Shown here piece by piece: positions 1,001-62,215 of a DNA stretch of 64,000 nucleotides. Numbering within the stretch: position 1 is the stretch's first letter; every line of letters starts with the position of its first letter. Made by a program: the position numbers and the translations under genes. This DNA comes from an uncultured Acidobacteriota bacterium (GTDB lineage: Bacteria; Acidobacteriota; Vicinamibacteria; Vicinamibacterales; JAKQTR01). The stretch is taken from assembly GCA_963806085.1 (NCBI GenBank), contig CAWDWR010000001.1, positions 1,733,573 through 1,797,572 of the forward strand, given 5' to 3'. The notes under the pieces are model-generated. The model saw only the letters and a list, made by a program, of their open reading frames with translations, had not been told where the DNA came from and searched no databases.

Positions 1001-1028
1001 CTAGCGCCTAGCGCCTAGTCCCTAGCCC

Positions 1029-1035
<7 letters not shown>
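1001..1035. repeat. Tandem heptamer array, 5 x CTAGNNC
   Basis: ctagcgc ctagcgc ctagtcc ctagccc ctagtat. The last CTAG supplies the ahcY TAG stop (1029..1031). Confidence 0.9.
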
Positions 1036-5588: not shown

Positions 5589-6752
5589 CTACTTCGCGAC
5601 CGCGCGGTAGCCCTGCCGCGCCCGTACGCGAACGTTCTTTCCGGGGACTTCGACGCGCAGCGTCCGCCAGCGTCCGTCCCGCGTGAGGTCCCTCGGCACG
5701 TAGCCAAGCAGGTACTGGTTCGACAACTCCTCGAGGATGTCGGCGAAGACGGCGTCGAGCTTGTCGACGCTGTCGCCGAAGAATGCCCGCCCGCCACTCT
5801 TCCGTGCGAGGCGCTCCAGCACCGTTCTGAGGCTCGCCAGCCGCGGCGCCCTCCCCTGGCCGATTGGGTACAGCACGGCGTCGCTCGCCTCCAACCGCCG
5901 CTCCGCGACCTCGATGGGCACGCGGCTGTTGAGGTCCTCGCCGTCGGTGAACACGACGAGCGCCCGTCGTCCCGTCTGACGCCCGAGCAGGTCGAACGCC
6001 TGCACGATCACGTCGTAGAGCGCGGTGCCGCCCCACGGCGCGAGGCGATCGACCGCCCGCAGCCGCGTCGGCAGGTCGACCGTCGGACGGGCCAGCGTGA
6101 AGACGGTGTCGTTGAACCCGAGGAGCGTGACACGATCGGTCGGCCTGATCGCGGTCAGGAACCGCTTCACCGACTCCTTCACCTTCGGCATCGCGTCCGT
6201 CATGCTGCCGCTGACATCGACGGCGACGATGAGCTCCAGCGGGACGTTCTCGGAGACGAACGTCGTCAGCGCCTGGGACTTGCCATCCTCGTAGAGGCGG
6301 AAGTCCTGCCGGGTGAGCCCGCGCACGAACCGCCCGGCGTTGTCGGTGACCGTGACGGTGACCTGCACCACGTCCACGTCCACCTTTTCGGTGTACTCCA
6401 CGCCCTTGGTCCGGATGCTGCGGGCCACCCTTCGGCCATCGGGCAGCGTCGCGACGGCGCGCAGGACGTGTTCCACCACGTTGGGACCGGCGTCCCACGG
6501 GCATTCGAAGGGCGGCTGCTCCAGCGTGCAGACCAGCCGGCCGTCCGCGAACAGGCTCACGTTGCTGAGAAGCGCGTCGGCGGGGGTGACGCGAATCCGG
6601 ATCGGCGTCGGGCCGCTCGCGTAGCCCCCGTCCTCGGGGGAAACGAACTCCAGGGCGACCTCGGGCGCCTGAGCCGCGAGCACCAGGCACGACACGAGCA
6701 GTGCGGCAACCAGCGCCGCGTGCCGGCCTCGAACGCTTTTACCGTCGGACAT
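5589..6752 (-). CDS. VWA domain protein (TIGR03436-type)
   Basis: 387-aa ORF with a signal peptide. MIDAS motif DVSGSM, then ...GGTALYD...VVFTDGED. The tail QYLLGYVP...WRTLRVEV is typical of the family. Confidence 0.9.
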   Translation of the reverse strand: MSDGKSVRGRHAALVAALLVSCLVLAAQAPEVALEFVSPEDGGYASGPTPIRIRVTPADALLSNVSLFADGRLVCTLEQPPFECPWDAGPNVVEHVLRAVATLPDGRRVARSIRTKGVEYTEKVDVDVVQVTVTVTDNAGRFVRGLTRQDFRLYEDGKSQALTTFVSENVPLELIVAVDVSGSMTDAMPKVKESVKRFLTAIRPTDRVTLLGFNDTVFTLARPTVDLPTRLRAVDRLAPWGGTALYDVIVQAFDLLGRQTGRRALVVFTDGEDLNSRVPIEVAERRLEASDAVLYPIGQGRAPRLASLRTVLERLARKSGGRAFFGDSVDKLDAVFADILEELSNQYLLGYVPRDLTRDGRWRTLRVEVPGKNVRVRARQGYRAVAK

Positions 6753-11788: not shown

Positions 11789-13786
11789 CTAGCGGCGCGG
11801 CGGCCCCGACGGCCGCCGGTGCAGATCGAACTGCTTGAAGAAGCGGTGGCACGCCTTCTGGAACCGCGCCTCGAGCTCCCGGCCGACCGCGTCGGGCACC
11901 GGTCCGAGTCGGCGCCACGAGGCCTGGGCCCTGCGCACCTCGTCGGCCGCGTTCCGCCACCGCGCCTCGTCATCCGCGCGGCCGCCGATGGTGTTCGCCG
12001 CCAGCGCTTCGCGGAGTTGGGCCGCCAGGATCGCGGCCGGCGACATCTGCGCATCGGCCTTCTCGTCGCCGGCGAACCCCTCGACGATCTGGCAGAGCTG
12101 CTCCATCCGCTTGCGGGTCGCCTCCGGGTCCAGGTCCGTGCCCCTGAAGGCGGCCGGCCTCGCGTCGATGACGGCGTTCATCGCGTTGGCAAACCGCTCG
12201 ACGAGGGGTTCGGCGTGCTCCCTGGTCACGGCCGGAGACTGGTCCCACTGCCGCTTGAGCGCCAGCACCTTCTTCACCAGCGCTTCGTCTCCGATCGCCT
12301 CCTCGCCTTCCGGCGGCGTGAGCGCGGCCTCGAGCTCCCCGCACAGCCGTTCGCGGGCCGCGAGCTGCTGCGCGACCTCGTGGTCGTTCCGGTGGGCGTA
12401 GCGGTCGAAGAACTTCTCGCAGGCCGTGTGGAACCGCGCCAGGAGGGCTTCCGACCGGTTGCGCTTCACCGGCCCGACCTGGCGCCACTCGGCCTGGATC
12501 CGTTTCACCTCGGCCAGGGCGTGGTCCCAGTCCGTGCTTTCGAGCAGCGCTTCCACCTCGGCGCAGATGGCCTCCTTCTTCTTGAGGTTGGCCAGCCACA
12601 CGTTCTTCCGTTCCGTCAGGTCGTTCTTCCGCCGCGTGAAGAAGCGGTCGCACGCGGCACGGAACCGCTCCCACACGGCCTTCTCGTGGCCGGGGGTGAC
12701 CGGGCCAATCGTCTTCCATTCGGCCTGGAGGCCCTTGATGGTCTCGGCGGTCCGGATCCAGTCGGTGGAATCTGCCAGCGACTCCACCTGTGCGCAGAGC
12801 GCCTCCTTCTTCCTCAGGTTCTCGACCCGCTCGACGGCGAGCTGCTGGAAGAACGACTCGCACCGCAGGCGAAGTTCGCCCTCGATGATCTTGTAGCGCT
12901 GCCACAACTCGCGGCCCTTTTCGCGAGGGACCGCCCGCACCTTGTGCCACTCGTCCTGCACGACGCGCAACTGCTTGGCGACCACGGCAGGATCGGCCTG
13001 GTCCCGCAGCGACTCGAGGCGCGTGATCAGGGCCTCCTGCACGCCCGCGTTGGCCCAGCGCTCCCAGCCGTCGGCTTCACGCAGGTCCTGCACGCGCGGG
13101 AAGATCTGCGACTGCACGGCCTTGAGCCGGGACACGATGGACTGCTGATCCTGGCGGGACGGCAGCGGCCCCGGCGCGTCCAGCGCCGCGCGGATGTCGC
13201 GCAGCACCCGCTCGGCATCGCGCAGCGTCAGGTGCTCCCCCTGCGCGAACTTCTCGGCCTCGTCGCACAGCTGCTGCAGGCGCGCCAGGTTGTCGTGCTG
13301 GTGCCGCGTGCGGGCCTCACGGACCGCCGCGTCGCGCGCGTCGATGCGCGCCTCGATGCCGGCCAGCCGTGACGCCGCCGGCTCGTCGAGCGGGAAGCCG
13401 GCGACGAGCGCCGTCCATTCACGCCGCAGGGCGTTCCAGCGCGTGCGCGCGTCAGGGAGGTCCGTGGCCGCCAGCACCTGCTCGGCTCCGTCGAGGAGTT
13501 GCGTCAGCCGGGCCATCTTCTCCGCCCGCTCTTCCGGGGAGAGCGCTCGCTCGACGGGCGGAGGCGACGGCGGTGCCGCCTCGGCCGGCACCGCGGGCGC
13601 GGCCTCCGGTGCCGCCGGCAGTTCCAGCGCGTCAGCCGGCTCGGCGCCGATCGGCGTCTCGGGCGAGGGCTCGGCCACGGGCTCGGGCTCGGGCAAGGGC
13701 TCGGGGATGCTCGGGTGTTCCGGGGAGGGCGGCTGAACCTCGTCGTGTTCTGGTGCCACGGTGCTCTCGCGCGCCTCATCGCACAT
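11789..13786 (-). CDS. DUF349 domain-containing protein
   Basis: 665-aa ORF with repeated about 75-aa units of the form ...W(E/K)xIGPV...(E)xLWxRFxxACDxFF..., characteristic of DUF349. Pro/Ala/Glu-rich N-terminus. Confidence 0.8.
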   Translation of the reverse strand: MCDEARESTVAPEHDEVQPPSPEHPSIPEPLPEPEPVAEPSPETPIGAEPADALELPAAPEAAPAVPAEAAPPSPPPVERALSPEERAEKMARLTQLLDGAEQVLAATDLPDARTRWNALRREWTALVAGFPLDEPAASRLAGIEARIDARDAAVREARTRHQHDNLARLQQLCDEAEKFAQGEHLTLRDAERVLRDIRAALDAPGPLPSRQDQQSIVSRLKAVQSQIFPRVQDLREADGWERWANAGVQEALITRLESLRDQADPAVVAKQLRVVQDEWHKVRAVPREKGRELWQRYKIIEGELRLRCESFFQQLAVERVENLRKKEALCAQVESLADSTDWIRTAETIKGLQAEWKTIGPVTPGHEKAVWERFRAACDRFFTRRKNDLTERKNVWLANLKKKEAICAEVEALLESTDWDHALAEVKRIQAEWRQVGPVKRNRSEALLARFHTACEKFFDRYAHRNDHEVAQQLAARERLCGELEAALTPPEGEEAIGDEALVKKVLALKRQWDQSPAVTREHAEPLVERFANAMNAVIDARPAAFRGTDLDPEATRKRMEQLCQIVEGFAGDEKADAQMSPAAILAAQLREALAANTIGGRADDEARWRNAADEVRRAQASWRRLGPVPDAVGRELEARFQKACHRFFKQFDLHRRPSGPPRR

Positions 13787-13931: not shown

Positions 13932-14480
13932 TCATCGTTTCCTGGCGATCCCGAGTTCACTGAGCTTCGCGACCAGGTCCTGGCCCGCGGTGGCCGGGCT
14001 GACCTGCTTTTCGATATAGAGAATCTTGCCGTCGGTCCCGATGTAGAACGTCCAGCGAAAGGCGACCTGGCGTTCCGGCGTGACGACGCCGTAGGCGGAG
14101 GCCACCTTCTTGCCCGGGTCGCTCAGGATCGGAAAGTCGAGGCCGAGCGACTCGGCAAACTTCTTGTTGTCCTCCGGCGAGTCGACGCTGGCCGCGAAGT
14201 ACGCCACATCGTAAGCCTTGATGAGGTCGCCGCTCTCACGGAGCGACTTGCACTCGGCCGTTCAACCACCGGTGAAGGCCTTCGGAAACCAGGCCAGGAC
14301 GACCGCCTTCTTCCCCGTGAAGTCGGCCAGCGTGTGGGTGGCTCCGTCGGATCCCGGCAGCGAGAACGCCGGCGCCGCGTCGCCCACCTGCGCTCCGCCC
14401 GCCGGCGCCTGCGCCTGCGCCATTGCGACCGCGGCGATGGAGAGGCCCGTCACGATCATCGTCGCTATCATCATTTTCAT
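13932..14480 (-). CDS. Secreted BCP/PrxQ-type peroxiredoxin, probable selenoprotein (UGA 14262..14264 read as Sec)
   Basis: The tail of ORF 14262..15062 (MKMMIATMIVTGLSIAAVAMAQA...[12 protein letters not shown]) and ORF 13932..14207 share one frame and are separated only by the TGA plus 18 sense codons. Read-through gives [18 protein letters not shown]...[12 protein letters not shown]..., colinear with Bcp [19 protein letters not shown]. Confidence 0.75.
14226..14247 (-). other. SECIS-like stem-loop
   Basis: 14 nt downstream of the UGA lies GUCGCUC-CGUGA-GAGCGGCGAC, a 7-10 bp stem with GU in the apical loop. The spacing from the UGA resembles that of the E. coli fdhF-type SECIS. Confidence 0.5.
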
Positions 14481-14513
14481 TACGAGCACCTGTGGACGTT
14501 GTTCAGCTCTTCG

Positions 14514-14541
14514 TCCCGAATCCCGAATCCCGAGTCCCGTC
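14514..14541. repeat. Tandem heptamer array, 4 x TCCCGAR (transcript sense UYCGGGA)
   Basis: tcccgaa tcccgaa tcccgag tcccgtc, located between the thioesterase stop (14552) and the peroxiredoxin start (14480). Confidence 0.9.
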
Positions 14542-14551
14542 CATCCAGCGC

Positions 14552-15043
14552 CTAGTCCCTGGCGCCTTCTCCGTGCCCCTGCCAGCGCGCGAACGCGGGG
14601 TGGCCCGGCTTGACAGCGACAAACGTGCCCCGGCAACTCGCACGCTGGGCGCCATCGGCCTCGAGCGTCGCCTCGACCACCGCCCGGTCGTCGGTGGACT
14701 CGACCACGCGCGCCCGCAGCCGAAGCGGCCCGCCGCTCGGGGTCGGCCGGCGCAGCTTCACGGCGTAATCGGCCGTGACGGTGAAGGGCGGCACGGATTC
14801 CCCGGCGCGCCGCATCAAGTGGTACGCCGCCGTCCAGTTGCAGTGGCAGTCGAAGAGCACGCCGATGATCCCGCCGTTGACGAATCCCGGAAACGCCTCG
14901 TGGTGCGGCTCCGGCGTCCAGTCCAGCACCACCTCGTCGCCCTCCACGCGGCTCTTGATGCGGAGCCCTTTGGAGTTGGCAGGCCCGCAGCCGAAACACG
15001 TCGTGTCGGGAGCGTAGCGGTCCTGCAGGCTCATCTCGGTCAC
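14552..15043 (-). CDS. PaaI-family (hotdog fold) thioesterase
   Basis: 163-aa ORF. It has an N-terminal CFGCGP zinc-ribbon-like motif and FPGFVNGGIIGVLFDCHCNW, typical of PaaI/YbgC-like thioesterases. Confidence 0.8.
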   Translation of the reverse strand: MTEMSLQDRYAPDTTCFGCGPANSKGLRIKSRVEGDEVVLDWTPEPHHEAFPGFVNGGIIGVLFDCHCNWTAAYHLMRRAGESVPPFTVTADYAVKLRRPTPSGGPLRLRARVVESTDDRAVVEATLEADGAQRASCRGTFVAVKPGHPAFARWQGHGEGARD

Positions 15044-15087: not shown

Positions 15088-15546
15088 CTAGTCGAGGTTG
15101 CGCAACTCTTCGTCGATGCGCTCCGCCTCGTCTTCGCTGGGCTGAGCGGCGGCCCGCTCGGTCCTGGCCGGCGCCGGGCCCACGGCCCGCAACCGCCGGA
15201 CGACCACCACCACGAGGCCGACGCTCACGACCAGGAAGACCCACGGCGCCACGTAAATCAGGCGGCTGAATCCGCGGGCAGGCGGCTCGGCCAGGATACG
15301 GTCGCCGTACTCGGCCACGTAGATGTCGAGGATCTGATCGGACGTCTTGCCTTCCGCCAGCAACCGGCGGATGTTCTGCTTGATTTCGTCGGCGGCCGGC
15401 GACTGGTGCAGCGAAACCTGCTGGGCCCAGCAGCACGGCGCCATGAGTTTGGATTCGAGTAGCTTCGCCTCGCGCTCGAGGGCCTGCGGGTCGGCCGCGG
15501 CGGCCGCCAGCCACAACGCGAGCGCCATCTGCATCAGCGAGCCCAT
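15088..15546 (-). CDS. CcmH/NrfF-like cytochrome c biogenesis protein (variant Cys-Cys motif)
   Basis: This is the C-terminal 152 codons of ORF 15088..17175, starting at MGSLMQMALALWLAAAAA (AAGGGA upstream). It reads LMAPCCWAQQVSLHQSPAADEIKQNIRRLLAEGKTSDQILDIYVAEYGDRIL plus a C-terminal TM helix, which is the CcmH layout. Confidence 0.65.
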   Translation of the reverse strand: MGSLMQMALALWLAAAAADPQALEREAKLLESKLMAPCCWAQQVSLHQSPAADEIKQNIRRLLAEGKTSDQILDIYVAEYGDRILAEPPARGFSRLIYVAPWVFLVVSVGLVVVVVRRLRAVGPAPARTERAAAQPSEDEAERIDEELRNLD

Positions 15547-15620
15547 GGGATGGTCCCTTCGGATTCGGCGGGCGCCCGTACCAGGACGCCCGGGGGCAAA
15601 CGTTGAGTGTACCGCAGCCG

Positions 15621-17175
15621 TCAGGCTCCAAACAACTGAACCAGCTCCGGCTTGACCACTTTGCCCATGGCGTTCCGAGGCAGGGCTGGGACAGTCGCGA
15701 GACGGCGCGGTAGCTTGGGGCCTGAGAATCCTGGCGCGAGCCCAGTCCCTGAGCTCCGGCAACGAGAGCGACGCGCCATCGCGCAGCGCCACGACCGCGG
15801 CCACGCATTCTCCCCACTCTTCGTCCGGAAGGCCGACGACGGCGCAGTCGGCGATGTCGGGGTGTTCCCTCAGAACGGCTTCGACTTCGAGCGCCGAGAC
15901 CTTTTCGCCGCCGGTCTTGATGATGTCGATCGACAGGCGCCCGAGGATCCGGAATACCCCGCCTTCGCGCGTCGCCACGTCGCCGGTGCGAAACCATCCG
16001 CCGTCGGCGAAGGCCGCTGCCGTCGCATCAGGGCGTCCCCAGTACTCGCGGAACACGCCGGGGCCTCGCACCAGGATCTCGCCGGGCCGGCCAGCGTCGA
16101 CGACCCGGCCGTCTTCGTCGACCAGGCGCACGTCGACTCCCGGAAGGGGCATGCCCACGACACCGGGGCGGCGGTCGCCGTGCAACGGGTTCGACAGCGC
16201 CATGCCAATCTCCGTCATGCCATAGCGCTCGAGCAGCGCGTGTCCCGTGATGACGCGCCACTCGTCGAAGACCGGCGCCGGCAATGCCGCCGAACCGGAC
16301 ACAAAGAGGCGCAGGCCCGCGGCGCCCCTGGACCAGGCGGCCTGCACGTCCGGAGGCGCGTCGTGCCAGGCGCGGATCAGCCGGGTGTAGATGGTCGGCA
16401 CGGCCATGAACACCGTGATCTCGCTGCTGACCAGACGCCGCCACGCATCGGCGGGGCTGAAACCGTCCGCGAACTCGCAGACGGCGCCATTCCAGAGCGC
16501 GCACGCCAGGATGTTGATGACGCCGTGCGTGTGGTTGAGCGGCAGCACGTGGAGCGCGCGATCGTCGGGACTCCACTCCCAGGCTTTGGTGAGGCACTCG
16601 GCCTGCGCCGCGAGGTTGGCGTGGGTGAGCACCACGCCTTTGGGCCGGCTGGTGGTGCCGCTCGTGTAGAGCATGAGCGCGCGTCGCCCGGCTGCGACGG
16701 CCGGGAGCGGGTCGCTGTCCGAGGCCGTCCCGGCGCCGGCCTGCAGCGCACCGGCGATGGTGATGCGAATGCGGCGTGCCTCAGCCAGCGGACGGAGAGC
16801 CTCGCGAAATTCCGGGACGACGATGACGTCGGCCGCGCCGCTGTCGGCGAGGATGTACGCCCACTCGTCAGGTGTCTGATGGGGTGCGAGCGGCACGGAG
16901 ACGCCGCCGGCCATCCACGTGCCCCACTGCCCCGCCGCATAGGCCAGGCCCGGCGGCGCCAGCAGCGCCACTCGCTCCTCCGTGAGATCCGCGCGTCCAA
17001 CGAGCAGGTTGCGGGCGACGCGGGCGGCACGATCGAGCAGGTCGGCGTACGCCCATCTGCCGGCGGAATCGACGATGGCCAGGCGTGCGCCGAAGCCGGC
17101 GCCGCGGCGGACGAGTTCGGGCAGGCGATCCGCAATCATCCCCGGTACGATAGCGCGCCTCGCGGGCCGGGCCAA
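15621..17175 (-). pseudogene. AMP-dependent acyl-CoA synthetase/ligase (MatB-like), apparent +1 frameshift near 15721..15729
   Basis: Adenylate-forming motifs are present (LMLYTSGTTSRPKGV, GWFRTGD, GGEKVS). After ...ELRDWARAR the canonical C-terminus GPKLPRRLATVPALPRNAMGKVVKPELVQLFGA* continues in another frame and ends at TGA 15621..15623. Confidence 0.8.
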
Positions 17176-19893: not shown

Positions 19894-19994
19894 GCAGAAG
19901 AAGCAAGAAGCCAGAAGGGCCCACTGACGATTGTCAGAAGCCAGAAGGGGGGCCAGCTGCTCCGGTGACTGTGCTTCTTGCTTCTTACTTCTTC
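19894..19994. repeat. Composite period-7 arrays (GAAG-type) in inverted orientation between convergent genes
   Basis: gcagaag aagcaag aagccag aagggcc (19894..19921), tcagaag ccagaag (19934..19947) and cttcttg cttctta cttcttc (19974..19994). Positions 19898..19911 are complementary to 19973..19986 (14 bp). Confidence 0.85.
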
Positions 19995-21054
19995 TTCAAC
20001 TGATAGAAGTTCTTGATCGCCCTCGCCAGGATCTTCCCCTGCCGCTTCTTCTCGAGTCCCGCGCGCTCGTCCTGCCGCTCGGCCAGCGTGTCCTGCTCAC
20101 GCCTGAGGTCGAGGTAGCTCTGAAGGCGCCGTTCCTCCAGCCGGCCGTCGGCGACAGCCGCCTTGACCGCGCAGCCGGGCTCGTTGTCGTGGCGGCAATC
20201 CCTGAACCGGCAGCCCGGGGCCAGGGCCTCGATGTCGTCGAAGGCGGCGCCAAGCCCTTCCCCAGTGTCCCAGAGCTGCAGCTCGCGCAGGCCGGGCGTG
20301 TCGATGAGCAGGCCGCCTGCCGGCAGCACGATCAGCTGGCGGTGGGTCGTCGTGTGCCTGCCCTTCTGGTCGCTCTCGCGCACCGCGCGCGTCCGCTGCA
20401 GGTTGTGGCCGACCAGGCGGTTCACGAGCGTCGACTTGCCGACGCCCGATGACCCAAGCAACGCGACGGTGCTGCCGGGAGCGACGAACCGTTCGATCGC
20501 GGCCAGCTGCGCGTCGAGCTTCGTGCTCACCGCAATCACCGGCGCCCCGCCTGCGGCGGCCTCGACCTCGGCCACGCGCGCCGGCACGTCGTCGCAGAGG
20601 TCGGACTTGTTGAGAACCACGATCGGGCTTGCGCCGCCTTCGTGTGCGGTGGCGAGGTACCGCTCCATGCGCCGCAGGCTGTAATCGGCGTCGAGGCCCA
20701 TCATCAGGAACACGATGTCGATGTTCGCCGCGACGATCTGCTCGTCGGTCTCGTCGCCGGCGACCTTTCGCGAGAACTTGCTGCGGCGCGGGAGCACCGC
20801 GTGAATCACGGCCCGCCGGCCGGCCACGAGCGCGCGAAGCACCACCCAGTCGCCAACGGCCGGGTATCCCGCCGCGAGACAATGCGGTGCCGGAGGCTGC
20901 CGGACACCGTGGCGAGCAGGTCCGAATGGCCGGTGTGGATGGTGTAGATGTGCTGGTGCTCGAGGGTGACGCGCCCGGGCACGAACCCTTCAGCCGCAAA
21001 CGGCTGGAAATCGGCCGCGAACCCCTCGTCCCAGCCGAGCCCTTGAAGCTCCAC
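19985..21054 (-). pseudogene. rsgA: Ribosome small-subunit-dependent GTPase A, apparent -1 frameshift near 20872
   Basis: ORF 19985..20845 carries the GTPase (NKSDL, GSSGVGKST, DTPG) and the zinc knuckle CRFRDCRHDNEPGCAV. The OB-fold N-terminus (GWDEGFAADFQPF...TVSGSLRHRIVS) is in ORF 20806..21183. The expected AGYPAVGDWVVL continues in the downstream frame. GTG 21054 is preferred as the start because yceI diverges from 21182. Confidence 0.8.
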
Positions 21055-30630: not shown

Positions 30631-30693
30631 TGTCTTCCGTCCTCTGTCTTCCGGTTTCCGGCTTCTGGCTTCTGACTTCCTACTGACTACTAC
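30631..30693. repeat. Tandem heptamer array, 7 x NNNCTTC then 2 x CTACTRN
   Basis: tgtcttc cgtcctc tgtcttc cggtttc cggcttc tggcttc tgacttc ctactga ctactac. The last two units encode the C-terminus and the TAG stop of the M28 gene. Confidence 0.85.
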
Positions 30694-32423: not shown

Positions 32424-32458
32424 CCCGAATCCCGAGTCCCGAACCCCGAATCCCGTGT
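32424..32458. repeat. Tandem heptamer array, 5 x CCCGNNT/C (transcript sense UCGGG)
   Basis: cccgaat cccgagt cccgaac cccgaat cccgtgt, downstream of the asparaginase-like stop (32547). Confidence 0.9.
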
Positions 32459-32546: not shown

Positions 32547-33035
32547 CTACGCCCCTACCTCCTCGAACACCCCCGTCTTCGTGTTCTTCCTGACCCTGTC
32601 CCACGGAAAGTAGCGGCCGTTCATCGCCACGTAGACGCCGGGCGGCAGCACCTGGGCGAACGACAGGGCGCTGCCGAGGTTGAACAGCCCGTCCGAGCTG
32701 CCGAAGGCGTACGGCACCATCGCGCCGGTCAGCACCACGGTCTTGCCCGCCACGCGCGAGGCGATCACGCGCGCCGTCTCCACCATGGTGTCGGTGCCGT
32801 GGGTGACGAGGATGCGATCCTCCGGCGCCTGGGCGCAATTCCGGGCGATGAGCTCGCGGTCGGCGTCGCTCATGTCCAGGCTGTCGACCAGCATGACGGT
32901 GCGGATGGCCACCTCCACCCGCGACCGGCCGAGGCGCAGCATGTCGGGCACCTGCGACTCGGTGAAGTGGAGCCGGGCGCTGATCTCGTCGTACCGCTTG
33001 TCGAAGGTCCCGCCGGTGATGAGGATGCGGATCAT
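32547..33035 (-). CDS. Short L-asparaginase-domain protein
   Basis: ORF 32547..33101, starting at Met23 (MIRILITGGTFDK...). It has the TGGT and HGTDTM motifs of the asparaginase N-terminal domain. Confidence 0.75.
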   Translation of the reverse strand: MIRILITGGTFDKRYDEISARLHFTESQVPDMLRLGRSRVEVAIRTVMLVDSLDMSDADRELIARNCAQAPEDRILVTHGTDTMVETARVIASRVAGKTVVLTGAMVPYAFGSSDGLFNLGSALSFAQVLPPGVYVAMNGRYFPWDRVRKNTKTGVFEEVGA

Positions 33036-46724: not shown

Positions 46725-47446
46725 CCCCGCAGCCGCCCGCCTTCGAACTCGCCGGCGTCCGCCACAGGTATGGCGCGAGAACCGTGCTGAGCATCCCCCA
46801 CCTCTCCATCCACAGGGGCGAGACCCTGGGCATCATCGGCCCGAGCGGTGCCGGCAAGAGCACGTTGTTGCGGCTGCTCCAGGGACTCGAGCGGCCGGCC
46901 GAGGGGACCATCAACATCGACGGCGAGCCCATGCCCGATCCGCTGCCGCTGGCGCTTGCCCGCCGTGTCACGACGGTGTTCCAGCGGCCGCTGATGCTCG
47001 ACCGGCGCGTCCGCGACAACGTGCTGTTCGGGCTCCAGGTGCGCGGACGGAAGGACCGCGCGCCGGCCGGTCCTCTGCTCGAACGCCTGGGCCTCACGCA
47101 CCTGGCAGACGCGCAGGCCCGGCGCCTGTCCGGCGGCGAGGCTCAACGCGTCGCGCTCGCCCGCGCGCTGGCCATCGAGCCCGATGTCCTGCTGCTCGAC
47201 GAGCCCGCGGCGAACCTCGACCCGGCGAACGTCGCCCGCGTCGAGGCGCTCATCCGCGACGCGCAGGCGCGCGGCACCACGATCGTACTCGTCACGCACA
47301 ATACGCACGAGGCCCGCCGCCTGGCGCACCGGACGCTGCTGCTGATTGAAGGGGCTGTCGTCGAGACAGGGCCGACCGTGGCGTTCTTCGAGTCGCCGGC
47401 AGAAGCCCGGACGCGGGCCTTCCTCGCCGGCGAATTGGTGTACTAG
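46721..47446 (+). CDS. tupC: Tungstate ABC transporter ATP-binding protein
   Basis: 241-aa ORF with Walker A GPSGAGKST, signature LSGGEAQR and Walker B LLLDEP. It overlaps tupB by 4 nt. Confidence 0.9.
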   Translation: MTPQPPAFELAGVRHRYGARTVLSIPHLSIHRGETLGIIGPSGAGKSTLLRLLQGLERPAEGTINIDGEPMPDPLPLALARRVTTVFQRPLMLDRRVRDNVLFGLQVRGRKDRAPAGPLLERLGLTHLADAQARRLSGGEAQRVALARALAIEPDVLLLDEPAANLDPANVARVEALIRDAQARGTTIVLVTHNTHEARRLAHRTLLLIEGAVVETGPTVAFFESPAEARTRAFLAGELVY

Positions 47447-48051
47447 GCACCCGCTGGTCTGAACACGTCGCGCAGGCGGATCTTCAGCCCCGGAAAAAGC
47501 CGCGACTCCAGAACGTGTCCGCTTGTCAGCGCAAGAACGGACATTTCCGTGAGCCCGCCGCCCGGCCCCGGCCGGCGCAGCACGGTAATCGACTCGGCGG
47601 CGGGGTCGACCAGCCAGTACTCCTGAACGCCCTCTCGGTCGTAGACGGCCCGCTTCCGCCCCAGGTCTCGCCGGCGCGTGCCGGGGGACAGGATCTCCAC
47701 GGCCAGATCCGGCGCGGCCGTCGCGTGCTTCTCGTTGACGGTGCGCGCAAAGCGGCCGGCGGTGAAGTAGACGAGGTCCGGCACGAGGACGGTATGAGCC
47801 GACAGCTTCACGTCGAACGGCGCGAAGAGCACCTCGCCGCTCCGGTGGCGTTCAGCGTGGGCGTTGAGGACGACGAACAGCCGCTTGAGAATCGTCTGGT
47901 GGGCCGTGCTGGGTGATGGCGTCACGAAGTGTTCCCCGTCGATCAGTTCGTGCCGCAGCTGGTCGTCGGGCAGCGCGACCAGGTCGCTGTACGTCCACGG
48001 ACGGTGCGTCTGCTGCGCGGAACTCATGGCATGCTTCCGGGAAGCCATCAC
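47443..48051 (-). CDS. Uma2-family (DUF820) endonuclease
   Basis: 202-aa ORF. It reads ELIDGE...SP...H, PDL...APDLAVEILSP and EYWLVDP, typical of the Uma2/PD-(D/E)xK fold. Confidence 0.85.
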   Translation of the reverse strand: MMASRKHAMSSAQQTHRPWTYSDLVALPDDQLRHELIDGEHFVTPSPSTAHQTILKRLFVVLNAHAERHRSGEVLFAPFDVKLSAHTVLVPDLVYFTAGRFARTVNEKHATAAPDLAVEILSPGTRRRDLGRKRAVYDREGVQEYWLVDPAAESITVLRRPGPGGGLTEMSVLALTSGHVLESRLFPGLKIRLRDVFRPAGA

Positions 48052-48266
48052 GCGGCGATTTTACCATCGTCGCTGGCGCCCCTCAGGACCTCCCGGGTGC
48101 GAAGAGCGCGCCAACCGTCAGATGCGGACAGCCCGTTCAGATCCGCTTGTCCAGTAAGCAGTTAGGGGATGAGGCGAGCGGCAGCGGCGGCGGATGGTTG
48201 CAGTTTCTGCCATCCGGACCGGTTCCAGGCCGCGCAGGAACTGCCGTGAACGCGAGTGCGCCGGGT

Positions 48267-49091
48267 CTAGCGGAGGCGGTAGGTCAGCGACGTGATCATC
48301 GTGTAGGCCGCGGGGCCGGCGACGACCGGGCTGTTCTCGATCGGGCTGCCGAAGGCCTCGCGGCTGAACAGCGCAAAGAGCGACCAGTTCTGCGTGAGGC
48401 GGATGTTGGCGCCGAGAGTCAGGTCCCAGTTCCACGACGAGGTGCCGCGGTACTCAGGGCGGTCGGGACGGGCTTCAGCCTCGCTGACACCGTAGTAGTA
48501 GTCGACCCGGGTCGCGCTGACCCATCGGGGGCCGATGCCGGCGAGCAGGAACGATCCGCGGCCGAGCGGCGCACCGGTCACGGCCTGCAGGCTGACCTCC
48601 TGGCCGCTGTTCCGGCCGAGGATATCGGACAGCATGTTGAAGCGGAACCCGACCGGCCGGGCACGATAGACGATTTCCGTGCCGGCGTCGGCCGACATGC
48701 TCCGGTTCGTCATGCCCTCGAGATACGGGCTGTCGGTCGATTCGAGGCCTTCGAAGTTCGCCTGCAGGTAGGCGTTGCCGGTCAGTTGCCCGGACTTCAG
48801 GAACTGGTATCCGCCACGGATCCCCTCGACGAACAGGTTCTTGTAGCGGACGTTGACGACGGGAATCGGGATGACCGCAGCGCTGGCGCCCTCGTAGGGC
48901 CGCGGGGCGAAGATGACGCCCCCGCCAACCGAAAGATCCAGGTTGTCGGGTGCGCTCGGCGGGGCTTCCTGCACGGCCGGGGCCTTCACCGGGCCATCGT
49001 GGGCGGACGCCCATCCGGGCGCACACGCCAGCAGGCTCAACGTCAGAAACGCTCCAACCAACGGCCGGGACCGAGGCCCACGCACAGTCAT
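48267..49091 (-). CDS. MipA/OmpV-family outer-membrane protein
   Basis: This is the last 274 codons of ORF 48267..49484. It has a signal peptide and alternating beta-strand pattern, with LSVGGGVIFAPRPYEGAS... and a C-terminal ...TSLTYRLR. Confidence 0.85.
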   Translation of the reverse strand: MTVRGPRSRPLVGAFLTLSLLACAPGWASAHDGPVKAPAVQEAPPSAPDNLDLSVGGGVIFAPRPYEGASAAVIPIPVVNVRYKNLFVEGIRGGYQFLKSGQLTGNAYLQANFEGLESTDSPYLEGMTNRSMSADAGTEIVYRARPVGFRFNMLSDILGRNSGQEVSLQAVTGAPLGRGSFLLAGIGPRWVSATRVDYYYGVSEAEARPDRPEYRGTSSWNWDLTLGANIRLTQNWSLFALFSREAFGSPIENSPVVAGPAAYTMITSLTYRLR

Positions 49092-49625: not shown

Positions 49626-49654
49626 GGGGCTAGGGGCTAGGCGCTAGGCGCTAG
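49626..49654. repeat. Tandem heptamer array, 4 x GSSGCTA (CTAG every 7 nt)
   Basis: ggggcta ggggcta ggcgcta ggcgcta g. The HAD gene TAG stop (49644..49646) and its last codons lie inside the array. Confidence 0.9.
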
Positions 49655-55263: not shown

Positions 55264-55327
55264 TCCGGGATTCGGGAGTCGGGGCTCGCCTTGGGTGACT
55301 GGCCTTCTACTGGCTACTGCCTACTGA
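55264..55327. repeat. Two heptamer arrays in a convergent gap: 3 x TYCGGGR, then 3 x CTACTGN
   Basis: tccggga ttcggga gtcgggg (55264..55284) and ctactgg ctactgc ctactga (55307..55327). Confidence 0.85.
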
Positions 55328-55354
55328 ACACGGACGTGCTCCCGGCTGCCTCCC

Positions 55355-57595
55355 TCACACCAGCCGCATCTTCCTCAGCAGCGCCTGCAGGCGGGCGTCG
55401 CCGCGAACGGGATCGAGGAACGGGAAGCTCCTGATCGGCATGATGATGGGGTCCCGGCCCTCGACGGCCCTGTCCATCCACTCGAATGCCAAGTCCCAAT
55501 CGCCGAGACCGATCGCGCAGAACATGAACGTGGAGGGTGGCACGTAGCCGGCGAGCGCCATCTGCTCCGCCTGCCCACGGAGGCGGAGCACGTCCTCATG
55601 CAGCCCCGCCCGCCCGGACACCATCGCCAGAAAGCCAAGCGTGAACGGGATGCCGCCGGATAGCTCGTGCGCTCGGCGGAGGGCCTCGACACCATCGGAC
55701 ACCGCATCGGTGTCGTTGAGGCCTATGCCCAGCGCCCAGTGCCCGAGGAAGTGCCCCGGGTCGAGGGCGATCATGTGCCGCCCTTCTGCGACCGTGCGCT
55801 CCGGCCTCCTGGCCAGGTGCGCGAGCACGGCCATCCACCATCTCGCGAGGATCGACAGCGGATCCGCCTGGAGGATCGCCTCGACTTCGCTCATCGCCGC
55901 GTCGTTGCGGGCGTGGGGCAGGAGACCGCTGATGGCGTAGCGGAGGCGCACAAGTGGCGATTCGCGGTTCAGCTCCAGCGCGCGCTGGAGCTCGCGGTCG
56001 ACTTCCGGCCAGTTGTAGTCCAGTTCTTTCCGGAGCATTCCCAGCAGGGCGTGCGTCTGGGCGAGGGAGTCGTCGATCTCGAGCGCGCGCAGGGCGTGCC
56101 AGGTGCTCTGCGAGAACGCCTCGCGCGGAGGAACGCCGCCGAAGAAACCAAGGTACCAGTGCAACTCCGCCATCGAGTCGTACGCAAGGGCCGATTCCGG
56201 GTCGAGCGCAATGGCTCGCTCGAAGCATGCTCGCGAGCGCATCAGCGCATCGGGTGTGCCGCGGGCGAAGAAGTAACGTCCCTCGAGGTAAGCGGCGTGG
56301 GCTTCGGGATCGATCGGCCGAGGTGACCGCCGGGGCGGCCCGCCGGCCAGCTGCACGCGCAGACGCTCCGCAATCGCTGCCGCGATCTCGTCCTCGAGCG
56401 CCAGCACGTCCGTCAACTCCCGGTCGTAGCGCGCGCTCCAGAGGTGGCTCCCGTCGCTCGTGCCAATCAACTGGGCGGTGACGCGCACCCGCGCGCCCTC
56501 CCGGCGCACGCTGCCTTCCAGGATGTGGCCGGCGCCGAGCCTCGCACCGGCCTCCCGCACATCGAGGCCCATGCGGGCGACGGCGAACGCCGAGGTTCGC
56601 GCGATCACCCTCAGCCCGGGGATCTCCGTCAAGGCGTTGATGATCTCCTCCGCGAGGCCTTCACAGAGGTAGTCGTCTTCCACGGCACCCGTCATCCGGG
56701 TGAACGGCAGCACCGCGACGGAGGGCGGCCCGGTTGCCGCGGCGGCTGCGACGCCCGATACGGCTCGAGCTGTCGCGCAGTCGAGAAGGGCGTCCCTCAG
56801 TTCGGCGGCCGACTGGAATCGCTCGGCGCGATCCTTCCGCAGGCACCGGCCGAGCAGCCGCTCCGCCCCGGGCGTGATCCCGCCAATCGGGGCTGGCTCA
56901 TCGCGGAGGATGGCGGCGAGCGTGCCCGCGGCGGAGTCGCCCTCGAATGGTCTTCGACCCGCCAACATCTCGTAGAGGACGATCCCCAGGCTGAACAGGT
57001 CGCTGCGCCCATCGACAGCCCGGCCGGCAGCCTGTTCCGGGGACATGTAGGGCGTCGTGCCGATAACCGCTCCCTGTTCCGTGAGCACGCCAGCCGTCTC
57101 TCCCGTCGCGGAAGCGGCGACGGGCTTGGCCAAGCCGAAGTCCACCACCTTCACGCGGTCGCCGGCAGCCACCATGATGTTCGAAGGTTTGAGGTCGCGG
57201 TGAACGATGGACTCCGCGTGTGCGGCCTCGAGTGCGTCCGCGATCTGGGCAGCAATGCGAAGGGCCCGGTCTTCGTCGACCGGACCGTTCCGCAGGAGAT
57301 CGGCCAGCGTTTCCCCAGCCACGTACTCCATCGCGATGTAGTCGAGGCCAGCGGCGGTGCCGATTTCGTAGATGGTCAGGATGTTCGGGTGATTGAGCGC
57401 GGATGCAGACTGCGCCTCGCGGATGAAGCGCCGCCGCCGTTCGGGGTCGGCCGCCCAGTCGCCCCGGATCACTTTCAGCGCGGCCAAGCGGCCGAGGCGC
57501 GTGTCCCGGGCCTTGTAGACCTCCCCCATGCCCCCGGCGCCGATCAGCCCGAGGACCTCGTAGGGACCCAGCCGCGTGCCCGCGGGCATGGTCAT
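55355..57595 (-). CDS. Ser/Thr protein kinase with TolB-N-like and TPR domains
   Basis: 746-aa ORF. Kinase motifs are GAGGMGEVYKA, HRDLKPSNIM, DFGLA and SPEQ, followed by SVAVLPFT...EGSV and TPR repeats. Confidence 0.9.
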   Translation of the reverse strand: MTMPAGTRLGPYEVLGLIGAGGMGEVYKARDTRLGRLAALKVIRGDWAADPERRRRFIREAQSASALNHPNILTIYEIGTAAGLDYIAMEYVAGETLADLLRNGPVDEDRALRIAAQIADALEAAHAESIVHRDLKPSNIMVAAGDRVKVVDFGLAKPVAASATGETAGVLTEQGAVIGTTPYMSPEQAAGRAVDGRSDLFSLGIVLYEMLAGRRPFEGDSAAGTLAAILRDEPAPIGGITPGAERLLGRCLRKDRAERFQSAAELRDALLDCATARAVSGVAAAAATGPPSVAVLPFTRMTGAVEDDYLCEGLAEEIINALTEIPGLRVIARTSAFAVARMGLDVREAGARLGAGHILEGSVRREGARVRVTAQLIGTSDGSHLWSARYDRELTDVLALEDEIAAAIAERLRVQLAGGPPRRSPRPIDPEAHAAYLEGRYFFARGTPDALMRSRACFERAIALDPESALAYDSMAELHWYLGFFGGVPPREAFSQSTWHALRALEIDDSLAQTHALLGMLRKELDYNWPEVDRELQRALELNRESPLVRLRYAISGLLPHARNDAAMSEVEAILQADPLSILARWWMAVLAHLARRPERTVAEGRHMIALDPGHFLGHWALGIGLNDTDAVSDGVEALRRAHELSGGIPFTLGFLAMVSGRAGLHEDVLRLRGQAEQMALAGYVPPSTFMFCAIGLGDWDLAFEWMDRAVEGRDPIIMPIRSFPFLDPVRGDARLQALLRKMRLV

Positions 57596-57619
57596 ACAGG
57601 GCTTCTCCTCATCGTCACT

Positions 57620-60600
57620 TCACCACGTCGGAACCGTCTTCCAGCCCGGGAAGGGGCCGACATCGATCGTCCACCGCGCTTCCGACGCCTGGTCTCTCAC
57701 CGCTCGGAGGTTCGTCAGCGACTTCAGTTTCGCCACTAACGCATCGTGAGGCAGTGTGTGCAATGGCGGCCTGCTGAGGTCGGGCATCGGCCACAGTCGG
57801 AGCGTGTTGTCCTCCCCGGCCGAGGCGATCCAGCGGCCATCCGGGGACTGCCCCACCGAGAAAACGGGGCCGTTGTGGCCGAGCAGTTCGTGCGGCTCGC
57901 CCGATCCGGCTCGGCCGACGCGGATCACGCCGTCCACGTCTCCCGTCACGACGATGCTCCCAGACGGGTCAACCGAGTAACTGCGCACGCAGTCACCGAA
58001 CTCCGTGAGCAGCCGTGCGGTTGACCTTTCGAGATCCCGCAGCGTCACCGTCGCACACTGGTCCCAGTTCACCAACTGGCGATCGATGGTCAGCGCCCTG
58101 CGACCTCCGGCTCCGAAGTCCGCGACCGTCATCGCGTCCGCGGGATTCGCGGCGACGACGTCGTAGGTACCCTTCTCAAGCTGCCACCGCAGGATCCCCG
58201 CTTGCCCTGCGGTGTAGACGACATCGTCGCTCGCGAAAGCAACCCGATGCACACCGCCCGCGTACCCGGAGTTCGGCGACGCTGTGTCCGGCGACGAGGC
58301 CTCGACGCCACCTGGAAGCGGGAAGGACCGGGCGTCGCCGGATTCGAGATTCCAGACTCGCAATACCCTGGGACCCTTCCCGAACTGAAACGCCGTTGCG
58401 ACTCTGTGCCCGGTGGGTGAAGCCGCCACCGTCTCGAGCAGGGTACCCGAATCGAACCCATCGAGCCGCCTGGGATTCCCCCCGGTGAGCGGGTAGACCG
58501 TGACATCTCCGGCAGTCGTGGCGGCAAACACGGACCCTCCCCGAGGATCGAATGCAAGTGCCGCGATGCAGTCCGGAGGGCGTGTCGCGTCGAAGATTCG
58601 GGCTTCGCCGGTGCCGTTGAGCGAGACCGGCCAGAGGTGCAGCTTCCCATCGGACCAGCCTGTCGCCAGCCAGCGCCCGTCCGGGCTGAACGTGATGGGC
58701 CTGCGCGCCGCCGCGTAGCCCTCGATGACGTTCAAGAAGGGCCTGCCGGTTGGCCAGAAGGTGACCGATTCTGTCCCGTGTGTCGTAACCGCCATCCAGT
58801 CGTCCCTCGGGTGCATGGTGCCCACGGCGAAGTACCACGAACCAGCACGGCGAAGCGTGAGAGGCAAGGCGCCAGGTAGGCCCGGGACCCCCCAGATTGG
58901 AGCCCTGGCGCTCTCGAGCGGCCGGCCCACCAACCAGCGTCCCAGGGGACTTGGCCCGGTCTCCGCCCCCGCACCGGAGGGCACCAATACGCCGGCAGCC
59001 GGCTTGTAGTCCCCTTCAGCGTTCGACCAGCGTGTCAGTCGGCCCGAGTGATCCTTCGAGAGGAACTCCCCTGGACGTTCGGATGGCATCACCGTCGTAT
59101 CCGAAGCATGGCGCGCCAGGAGGATGTCCGACCGAAACGCGCCGGCCCGGAGCGGACGAAGATAGAGACTGGAACCTCTCGTGTAGATCCACGACGGTCC
59201 TGCCGGATCGAAGCAACTGCTCGACGGCTTCATCGTCTGCCACTCGATCCGGCTCAGCGTCTCGGGCTCCCCGCCATCAAGCCGCCAGGCGCGAAGGGCC
59301 ACCACCTCGGGTCGATCCGGCGTCCCGCGCTCGATGACCTCGGCGAACAGCGTCGCGGCGCCCAATTGCCAACGGCCGCGGCCGCCCAGCTCTATAGTCC
59401 GGACTCGTCGTGCTCCCGGGAAAGACCATACGTGAACACGGTCCGCCATCCAGCCGCTGAGGCCTGTGACCAGAAGCTCGTCGGATGCCCACCTGGGGAC
59501 ATTGGGACTGGCGGGTGTCTGCTCATGACCCGGAAGCAGTACCCGGTCCGCTCCCGTCGTCGGACCAGACCCTGCCGTAGGCGTTGTAGCCCGCCACGGC
59601 GAGCCGGCTGCCGTCCGGACTGAAGGCCGGATTCCGCAGATCGGTGTCCCCAGCCGGCATCTCGATGGCAGGGGGCGCATCCCACAACGCCCGAAGGGCA
59701 AAACGGCGGGCTTCGGTCGTGTCCACCATCTCGAGGCTCGCCGTCGCCAATGCGAGGGCTTCGGTTGGATCGTCTGCCAGTCGTGCCTGCGCGAATGCGA
59801 GCAGCTTGGCGGCTTCAGCCCGTCGCGCGCTCTCGATGGCCGACTGGCGCGAGATTCCGATGGCAATCGCCACGGCGCTCAAGCCCACGATAACAGTGGC
59901 GACGGTGGCCGAGAGCAGCAGCTTCTTGCGTTTCGCCCGCGTGGCCATAGCGGCCGCGAACGCCTCCTCGACGGCCGTGAGGGGGGCCCCGTACCGCTCG
60001 CGCCACAGCGCGTACTCGCGATACGCCGTCCCGGTCCACAGCAGGTCGGACGTGCGCCCCTTCTCTGCCCAGAGGTGCGCGGCCTGCTTCAGCTGGTCGC
60101 GCAGCTGTGCGCCGTCCTCGTCCTGCATCTGCCACCGCACCAGGCGGGGCCACGCCTTGAGCAGCGACTCGTGCACGACCTCGATGCCTTGGCGGCCCGC
60201 CTCGCCGCCGTGTCTCTCGGCCTCGTACGACGTCAGCAAGCGCGCGTCGACGAGGTCGCGCAGCACCGACTCGGCCGACGCGCGGTCGGGGAAGGCCGAG
60301 AGCAGTTCGTCGCGATCGACGACGGACCTGGTGCCGTGAGACGTGACGAGGTTGCGGAGGATGTCACGGACGAGGTCCTGCCTGGCCGCACCGATCCGAT
60401 CGAGCGTTGCCTCGGCGTGCTGGGCGAGGGCGCCTGCGACGCCGCCGATGTCCTCGTACGCGGCGCGGGTGAGCGTCTTCCGCTCGCGATCGCGCCGTTC
60501 CCAGAGACGTGAGACGGCGAAGGCGAGCAACGGCAGCGCCGCGCGGGCACCCTCCACACACGCCACCATGTCCTCGACCAGGAGCGGGTCTGCGAACCGG

Positions 60601-62180: not shown

Positions 62181-62215
62181 CGTCCGAGTCCGGATCCCGA
62201 ATCCCGAACCCCGGC
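62181..62215. repeat. Tandem heptamer array, about 5 x (G/T)YCCGRA
   Basis: cgtccga gtccgga tcccgaa tcccgaa ccccggc, directly abutting the TAG stop of the permease gene (62215..62217). Confidence 0.85.

Follow-up and report, generated by a model that had tools for sequence, protein, structure and literature searches.

Within a 64,000-nt stretch of contig CAWDWR010000001.1 from an uncultured soil bacterium of the Vicinamibacterales, Acidobacteriota (the window hereafter, 70% G+C), we analysed an array of 7-nt units at 14514-14541 that lies just behind the stop codon of a thioesterase gene, together with the other heptamer arrays of the window and arrays from other genomes. These arrays belong to a class of repeat already described in Xanthomonas, Nostoc and other cyanobacteria, found here in the Vicinamibacterales. 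Their first unit lies some 0-12 nt past a stop codon, and it is the coding strand that carries the G-rich or purine-rich version. Most are found where transcription units end, ahead of any terminator hairpin, and few in tight operon junctions. Copy number changes by single units, gained or lost as replication slippage would have it, and the arrays turn over fast, being kept among close relatives with a varying copy number or unit and gone in more distant ones. We consider that they are probably slippage-driven heptamer microsatellites of this known class, occupying the untranslated stretch just behind stops; a weak structural role is possible. G-quadruplexes (G4) may still form at some arrays, as related oligonucleotides do in vitro, but they cannot be what places and orients them. 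New are the host phylum, the unit GGGAYUC and the presence of several unit families under one rule, as well as the tightness of that rule, which operates within a few bases of the stop, and its validity for units incapable of forming G4.

Position and strand of the arrays

Two scans supplied loci for comparison. The first searched one genome per species for four units of CCCGARN and the second searched metagenome contigs for CAGTAGN units; each returned at least 120 loci. The survey counts given below are drawn from loci among the matches listed in these scans, and each survey selected its loci for one unit family. Position and strand were surveyed in 105 high-GC loci containing 267 arrays, each array being oriented by its G-rich strand and each locus being annotated with a gene caller whose start positions are imprecise.

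The arrays crowd against stop codons. Sixty-one of 108 lay within 12 nt of the stop on the same side, against 13.5 expected under uniform placement in the gap, and in 200,000 simulations of array placement none exceeded 29 within this distance. Over the two surveys the median distance from stop to array was 2-8 nt, and in the 105 loci the other three kinds of neighbour lay at medians of 57, 83 and 168 nt. Strand is biased as well: the sense strand of arrays lying no more than 12 nt from a stop was G-rich in 61 cases and C-rich in 7 (p = 7e-12; 105 loci). Units outside the searched family split 22 to 5 in the same direction. A check that is free of gene models, based on frames of at least 150 codons ending no more than 15 nt from an array, assigned 42 frames to the G-rich strand and 5 to the C-rich one. 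Independent gene calls that came with the loci are in agreement: at L123, for instance, an array of 10.6 CGAACGG units begins 10 nt past the stop. The strand rule is real and general. The preliminary description of the window had confined the arrays to gene 3′ ends and given them a constant orientation, which it took to argue for a function at the RNA level or on the non-template strand; the rule indeed fits a cause linked to transcription or to untranslated RNA.

Divergent gaps are depleted of arrays about twofold but are not empty, with 0.58 arrays per kb against 1.05-1.44 in the other gap classes (105 loci). The six divergent gaps of the window contain no array, as had been noted previously; they total only ~600 nt, so that this absence is not significant alone, and it is depletion rather than emptiness that the survey supports. 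Co-directional gaps that carry an array are long even once the array is subtracted (median 160 nt vs 57.5 nt in array-free gaps), and arrays therefore avoid tight operon junctions and occur mostly at the ends of transcription units. By a crude terminator scan, a terminator-like hairpin followed by a T run comes after 33% of array-bearing ends vs 38.5% of array-free ends. Such sites are always 4-86 nt beyond the array, as at ~963-998 in the window and at locus L001. The arrays take up the first bases of the 3′ untranslated region (UTR) and are not terminators themselves. Two inverted arrays in one gap are common, with the G-rich array first in 28 cases and the reverse order in 4, the order being identical whichever strand is read. 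Of 134 CAGUAG arrays, 54 (~40%) are accompanied no more than 140 nt away by a CUACUG partner, the two making a long hairpin.

The phase of the array relative to the stop is spread evenly over all seven registers, hence the stop is not systematically part of the repeat, and the idea that arrays are seeded by the stop codon or take it as their first unit is ruled out. Among the stops of the multi-phylum survey, TAG is over-represented at array-bearing ends (23/61 vs 129/590; odds ratio 2.2, p = 0.01). The same comparison within the window is not informative, TAG already being the majority stop there. As an observation in its own right, TAG ends 23 of the 43 genes of the window (TGA 17, TAA 3), which is unusual for bacteria.

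The array at 14514-14541

Genes of the window were mapped with a codon-usage caller trained on the window and checked with Pfam. Tandem Repeats Finder (TRF) reports period-7 arrays at 1001, 14514, 19898, 19972, 30648, 32424, 49625, 55307 and 62190, that is nine arrays of at least 2.8 copies, against a mean of 1.0 and a maximum of 4 in 30 dinucleotide shuffles. The three-unit pattern CCCGARNCCCGARNCCCG, with at most one mismatch, matches the window seven times where 0.09 matches are expected. With all families counted, there is about one array per five genes. TRF and the sequences themselves agree with the eight loci listed in the preliminary description. Its statement that all of them come directly after a stop holds for seven, which touch a stop codon or directly follow one, and fails for 32424-32458, where the distance is 88 nt. 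It gives the correct orientation for UYCGGGA (4 of 4 loci), GAAGNNN (3 of 3) and CAGUAGN (2 of 2). For CUAGNNN the constant orientation carries no information on strand, CTAG being palindromic; by G/C content the two arrays of this family are opposite, that at 1001 being G-rich in the sense of the upstream gene and that at 49626 C-rich.

The array at 14514-14541 (minus strand) comprises four UYCGGGA units in the sense of the upstream gene, identified from the sequence and by TRF (14514-14539; period 7, 3.7 copies, 94% matches). Its units are GGGACUC, GGGAUUC, GGGAUUC and GGGACGA. The minus strand reads GACGGGACUCGGGAUUCGGGAUUCGGGACG, and the thioesterase transcript would thus contain four G3 tracts with 4-nt loops, exactly as first described. 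The array begins 10-12 nt past the TAG (14552-14554) of a gene for a thioesterase of the 4HBT family (14552-15043, minus strand; gene call and Pfam PF03061). The next gene, encoding an AhpC/TSA peroxiredoxin-like protein (13932-14489, minus strand; Pfam PF00578 on both halves), starts 62 nt past the thioesterase stop, its ATG being ~35 nt beyond the array on the same strand. The array is therefore housed in a 62-nt gap between two co-directional genes, which makes it a minority case among array-bearing co-directional gaps. A role in termination had been suggested for this array, yet within the 62-nt gap we found no GC-rich hairpin followed by a U run. The arrays can be rejected as intrinsic terminators, here on this ground and generally because hairpins are not commoner at array ends.

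Turnover among relatives

Contigs of sister strains from two soil metagenomes (X1 and X2) lack exactly 7 nt at 14514, leaving one unit fewer and three G tracts. A wider comparison of orthologous regions, proposed in the preliminary description, was made for six related loci (L121-L126), for which percentages are protein identity to the arginine decarboxylase of the window, the product of speA. Homologues at 93-97% identity come from organisms named Vicinamibacterales or Acidobacteriota. Behind the speA stop the window has 3 units. L126 (99%) has 5.6 units, L124 (97%) has 4.3 units and an inverted partner, and L125 (93%) has 3.1 units of a variant unit. At L121 (97%) a degenerate remnant is left, and no array is found at L122 (92%) or L123 (84%). 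Arrays are thus kept in close relatives, with copy numbers of 3-5.6, changes of unit and outright losses.

A second site, 49626, shows that an array site persists while the unit family changes. It carries GGGGCUA in the window (4 units), L121 (5.6) and L124 (4.6). In L126, the closest relative, the site (6003-6034) is occupied by 4.6 units of GGGAUUC with no change of strand, and about two CUCGGGR units are present in L125 and L122. The CAGUAGS array at 55304-55327 is unchanged in L126.

Arrays do not linger as degenerate remnants. In the 42 nt that follow stops, self-similarity reaches 0.38 at lag 7 and 0.26-0.31 at other lags; the lag-7 value drops to background (0.29) once detectable arrays are removed. 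The absence of a residual signal rules out a large population of old, decayed arrays hidden behind stops.

Relationship to described repeats

The preliminary description could match the arrays to no described repeat family. However, Rehm et al. 2015 (PMC4692102) describe the class: GGGAATC in Xanthomonas, with ~185 arrays per genome, and GGGGAYT in Nostoc. Their units contain a G3-4 tract and occur in 2-26 copies with a mode of four, 89-93% of arrays are intergenic and 7-8% lie between divergent genes. Most are found on the coding strand no further than 50 bp from a stop, or else on the non-coding strand ahead of a gene, without bias between leading and lagging strands, and 70-75 arrays form inverted pairs. 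Oligonucleotides of GGGAATC and GGGGAYT form G4 in vitro by circular dichroism spectroscopy and give i-motif signals. The arrays are transcribed, and transcript starts and stops are commoner at G4-capable than at control arrays. Array length differs between Xcc and Xac, and no function or regulatory role was found (PMC4692102).

The array at 14514 has the features of this class. It is an intergenic run of at least two variant 7-nt units with a G3-4 tract, no more than 50 bp from a stop, its G-rich strand is the coding strand, and its copy number differs among close relatives. More broadly, the arrays studied here share with the Rehm repeats the heptamer with a G3-4 tract, variant units, intergenic position, proximity to stops, strand, scarcity in divergent gaps, inverted convergent pairs, length variation among relatives and the lack of a tie to particular gene functions. 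They differ in the loop, the unit being GGGAYUC (GGGAUUC or GGGACUC) and not GGGAAUC, so that the published consensus sequences GGGAATC and GGGGAYT are not found at 14514, and in their acidobacterial host. Families without a G tract (CAGUAG, GAAGCCA and CUAGGSG) share the same positions in this genome, and the ~185 arrays per genome refer to one family whereas the figure of one array per five genes here includes all families. Because of the different loop sequence, we file the array as a new member of the class and not as the same repeat.

An excess of heptamers among the simple-sequence repeats of large bacterial genomes was reported by Mrazek et al. 2007, as cited by Rehm et al., who also cite the idea that polymerase slippage is the source of this excess and the heptanucleotides of Calothrix. 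The repeats of Mrazek et al. 2007 and Huang and Mrazek 2014, so far as they are covered there, resemble ours in the dominance of period 7 among long units, in being intergenic and in the slippage proposed for them; in the summary by Rehm et al., the 2007 work is silent on stop-codon adjacency and strand. The short tandemly repeated repetitive (STRR) sequences of cyanobacteria (PMC2670836) are 7-bp units between genes that form hairpins and have no known function, although roles in transcript stability or translational coupling have been suggested. Like our arrays they are tandem, hairpin-capable and intergenic (e.g. hupS-hupL), with several families per genome, but the units differ and the genomes are of low GC and another phylum. 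The TAACTGA repeats of Beggiatoaceae, cyanobacteria and Bacteroidetes (MacGregor 2015, PMC4679880) are likewise intergenic heptamers in 2-6 or more tandem copies, with one unit in distant phyla. These lie mostly a few nt upstream of start codons, whereas the arrays here lie behind stops.

Other repeat classes fit less well. Repetitive extragenic palindromic (REP) sequences are palindromic units of ~35 bp spread by RAYT transposases (REP-associated tyrosine transposases). Together with the bacterial interspersed mosaic elements (BIME), they favour transcribed 3′ flanks in co-directional or convergent gaps rather than promoter gaps and often form inverted pairs. The arrays share the 3′-flank niche and inverted pairs of the enterobacterial REP/BIME elements. 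However, those elements are not tandem 7-nt repeats, and no RAYT-type enzyme is implicated for the arrays. The units in the window are 7-nt direct repeats and not imperfect palindromes of ~20-40 bp; palindromy arises only where two arrays face each other (19894-19997). Nor are the window arrays phase-variation simple sequence repeats, which lie in a reading frame or promoter spacer, since they are behind stops and none is in the divergent promoter gaps of the window. A search of the window against Rfam 15 at gathering score gave no match, and a tRNA scan of the window found nothing.

Origin of the pattern and alternative explanations

Under slippage in the untranslated stretch behind stops, position and strand would reflect where arrays arise and survive, namely DNA that is transcribed and untranslated. 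G-rich nascent RNA and a displaced, G-rich non-template strand would favour slipped structures or R-loops, and arrays would be excluded from coding sequence, promoters, ribosome-binding sites and coupled junctions. Any effect on the cell would be generic, that of a structured spacer of variable length where the 3′ UTR begins, and a G4 built from four GGG units would be a by-product of one unit family and not the cause of the pattern.

Several points weigh against this explanation. Tolerance alone leaves both the adjacency to the stop, within a few bases, and the strong strand bias unaccounted for, and the R-loop or slipped-strand account of these two features is conjectural. The period of 7 is also left unaccounted for. 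The units YCGGGAY and CAGUAG recur in many phyla and one site keeps an array while its unit changes, either of which could mean selection for function. Moreover, transcript starts and stops are commoner at G4-capable arrays than at controls (Rehm et al., PMC4692102). Imprecise gene starts, survey loci chosen for one family and the crude terminator scan also count here.

A possible, though unlikely, alternative is that arrays of any unit are selected as structural boundary elements of transcription units, which, singly or with an inverted partner, would form hairpins and act by stabilising the mRNA 3′ end, by extending bidirectional terminators or by spacing the terminating ribosome from the terminator. 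Such a boundary role has been proposed for the enterobacterial REP/BIME elements and for the cyanobacterial STRR sequences. Inverted partners of the same family occur far above chance (54/134 here; 70-75 arrays in Rehm et al., PMC4692102), and the pair at 19894-19997 forms a single long hairpin (z about -4). The position between stop and terminator hairpin at the ends of transcription units, the retention of an array at one site through a change of unit family and the transcript stability or translational coupling suggested for STRR sequences (PMC2670836) would all be consistent with such a role. However, most arrays, that at 14514 included, have no partner, their copy number is not constant, and relatives at 84-92% protein identity, at one site even a relative at 97%, have lost them. 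Rehm et al. (PMC4692102) found no regulatory role.

More speculative, and rather unlikely in our view, is that heptamer arrays behind stops form a pan-bacterial functional element of flexible sequence and fixed period, for example an RNA polymerase pause or R-loop boundary, or a mark for the terminating ribosome or an RNA-binding protein. If so, selection would keep an array at its site while unit and copy number drift, and this would account for the recurrence of a few units across Acidobacteriota, Xanthomonadales, Planctomycetota and Streptomyces.

The preliminary description had centred on G4, and the view that the arrays are RNA or non-template DNA G4 elements acting in 3′-end formation, stability or termination draws on the four G3 tracts with 4-nt loops at 14514, on the G-rich strand being the sense strand (61 vs 7), and on the G4 formed in vitro by GGGAATC and GGGGAYT oligonucleotides, the mode of four units and the additional transcript starts and stops reported by Rehm et al. 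(PMC4692102). We nevertheless judge it quite improbable. Units incapable of forming G4, among them CAGUAG, GAAGCCA and GGUCAGU, follow the same rule, and units without a G3 tract show the same stop adjacency, strand bias and mode at about four copies. Among CAGUAG arrays of high-GC metagenome loci, 36 of the 45 that have a same-strand stop on their 5′ side were within 12 nt of it (median 2 nt), against 1 of 41 in the opposite orientation. CAGUAG, which cannot form G4, thus obeys the rule even more strictly (36 vs 1), so G4 is not the common cause. The canonical motif of four G3+ tracts separated by N1-7 is present at 14514 (four tracts) and 32424 (five tracts), but not at 55264 or 62181 (three tracts each) or in the X1/X2 allele of 14514; half of the four UYCGGGA loci in the window thus fall short of four G tracts. 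Orthologous arrays span 3 to 5.6 units. When the 85-nt gap at 14514 was folded with ViennaRNA and G4 energies enabled, a hairpin fold was kept and no G4 appeared in the minimum-energy structure. The position of this array inside a 62-nt co-directional gap also speaks against this view. As a general cause, G4 is ruled out by the units lacking a G3 tract, the three-tract alleles and the orthologues of 3-5.6 units.

It is very improbable that the arrays are DNA-level sites (G4, i-motif or cruciform) for a nucleoid protein or topoisomerase at gene ends where supercoils accumulate, in the way that REP/BIME elements bind gyrase and IHF. Three 7-bp units make 21 bp, or two helix turns, which can be counted in favour of this idea. 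The 5′ end of the G-rich strand abuts a gene boundary even where that boundary is the start of a gene on the opposite strand (31/80 within 40 nt; likewise in Rehm et al., PMC4692102), and i-motif signals occur in vitro (PMC4692102). However, the strand rule tracks the gene and so suggests a link to transcription or RNA, a sequence-specific binding protein is hard to square with so many unrelated units in one genome, and no candidate protein is known. Least credible is a role in translation termination, with purine-rich units resembling a Shine-Dalgarno sequence that hold or pause the ribosome, or TAG units (CAGUAG, CUAG) that serve as back-up stops in three frames: the arrays do start inside the ribosome footprint at the stop (median 2-8 nt), a period of 7 brings a motif into all three frames within three units, TAG is enriched at array-bearing ends (23/61 vs 129/590, p = 0.01) and predicted pairing with the anti-Shine-Dalgarno sequence is slightly better than for permuted units (z = -0.35), but at -4.9 kcal/mol this pairing is weak and its small excess comes mainly from one unit family, the commonest units are free of stops in every frame, the register from stop to array is uniform, and arrays avoid the tight junctions where translational coupling matters.

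Other arrays and features of the window

Four arrays, at 1001, 19972, 30631 and 49626, overlap a stop codon or the last codons of a gene. The array at 1001-1035 (minus strand; TRF, sequence and Pfam) consists of 4.6 CUAGGSG units and contains the TAG (1029-1031) of a gene for S-adenosylhomocysteine hydrolase (AdoHcyase). Directly after it, at ~963-998 on the minus strand, is a 16-bp GC-rich hairpin with a U/C-rich tail that is terminator-like, the array filling the space from the AdoHcyase stop to this hairpin. Contigs of soil metatranscriptomes matched only the conserved coding part of the AdoHcyase gene. In the convergent gap between genes for an M14 peptidase and RsgA (19894-19997; TRF, sequence and Pfam), a GAAGCMA array past the plus-strand stop faces an inverted copy that overlaps the TAA and the last Lys codons of RsgA, and the pair folds as one long hairpin of -41.9 kcal/mol. 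At 30631-30693 (minus strand), CAGUAGN units holding the TAG (30680-30682) of an M28 peptidase gene are followed by a GAAGNCR/GGAAGAC array.

The exception to stop adjacency, at 32424-32458 (minus strand; TRF, sequence and fold), has 4.6 UYCGGGR units, in which there are five G tracts. An asparaginase-like gene ends 88 nt upstream of it (stop at 32547-32549), and an M28 peptidase gene starts ~17-40 nt downstream. At 49626-49654 there are 4.3 GGGGCUA/GGCGCUA units, G-rich on the plus strand, which contain the TAG (49644-49646) of a minus-strand gene for a HAD hydrolase and end 17 nt from the start of a Nuc_deoxyrib_tr gene. Separately, in L123 an array of 3.1 GGGAGTC units (705-726) is inside the called 3′ part of a HAD hydrolase gene, and the length of the HAD hydrolase product ranges over 184-286 residues among relatives. 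Arrays may remodel protein C-termini.

The UYCGGGR array at 55264-55288 (plus strand, 3 units) begins 6 nt past the TAG of the arginine decarboxylase gene. In the same gap, the CAGUAGS array at 55304-55327 (minus strand, 2.9 units) is 27 nt past the TGA of a convergent Ser/Thr kinase gene (55355-57595). At 62181-62215 (minus strand), 3.4 UYCGGGR units, degenerate at the far end, come directly past the TAG of a MacB/FtsX permease gene (62215-63495). As to whether orientation might follow the replication strand and not the gene strand, GC skew is negative throughout the window, and the arrays at 19894 and 55264 still follow plus-strand genes, albeit in a small sample.

The region 55340-61340, which contains Ser/Thr kinase, WD40 and kinase-nSTAND1 NTPase genes, is almost uncovered by related strains in four metagenomes that cover the window outside it, and the genes after speA in L121-L126 differ from this block. 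It is a strain-variable island, and its start falls exactly at the array-filled convergent gap. At 47444-48273, 828 nt are skipped in contigs of two metagenomes (X2 and X7), which carry 25 other letters instead, and the gene at 47443-48027 is absent from these strains.

Three further observations concern the neighbourhood of 14514. The AhpC/TSA-like gene has an in-frame TGA (14262-14264) at the expected peroxidatic cysteine (FTGG-U-TAEC), and a 7-bp hairpin (GUCGCUC...GAGCGGC) lies ~16 nt downstream of it. Judged from this sequence context, the TGA is probably a selenocysteine codon with a selenocysteine insertion sequence (SECIS) element and the gene is not broken. A hexamer, CTCGGG, is repeated eight times at 13658-13705 inside a coding region, and the related strain X1 has an extra 6-nt unit; this repeat is the in-frame counterpart of heptamer slippage. 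Finally, in the frame at 15088-17175 (minus strand) an AMP-binding enzyme is fused to a CcmH domain. Where the two meet, at 15729, related strains are 1 nt shorter, as they are at 11717, and the fusion may be a frameshift or assembly error.

Distribution and significance

Among the matches listed, CCCGARN loci came from Lysobacterales/Xanthomonadaceae relatives, Rhodanobacter, many Acidobacteriota, Gemmatimonadales and Planctomycetota, and also from Streptomyces, Micromonospora, Myxococcota, Verrucomicrobiota, Bacteroidota and others. Over 953 kb of these loci TRF gives 352 rows for period 7 and 62, 35 and 50 rows for periods 6, 8 and 9 respectively, and the additional period-7 arrays are made of many different units. 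In metagenome assemblies, array sequences join many different flanks and show depth spikes. The arrays are dispersed families and they break assemblies.

In summary, many large bacterial genomes have heptamer repeats among their most abundant non-coding features, and a stop-adjacent rule in which they are G-rich or purine-rich in the sense strand is shown across many phyla. Because the rule also holds for units incapable of forming G4, the only mechanistic idea in the literature no longer serves as a general explanation. If the arrays are functional, their function concerns how bacterial transcription units end; if they are functionless, they offer a clean natural system in which to study how transcription orients repeat instability. 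In both cases they make useful markers for strain typing and a frequent cause of contig breaks in metagenomes.

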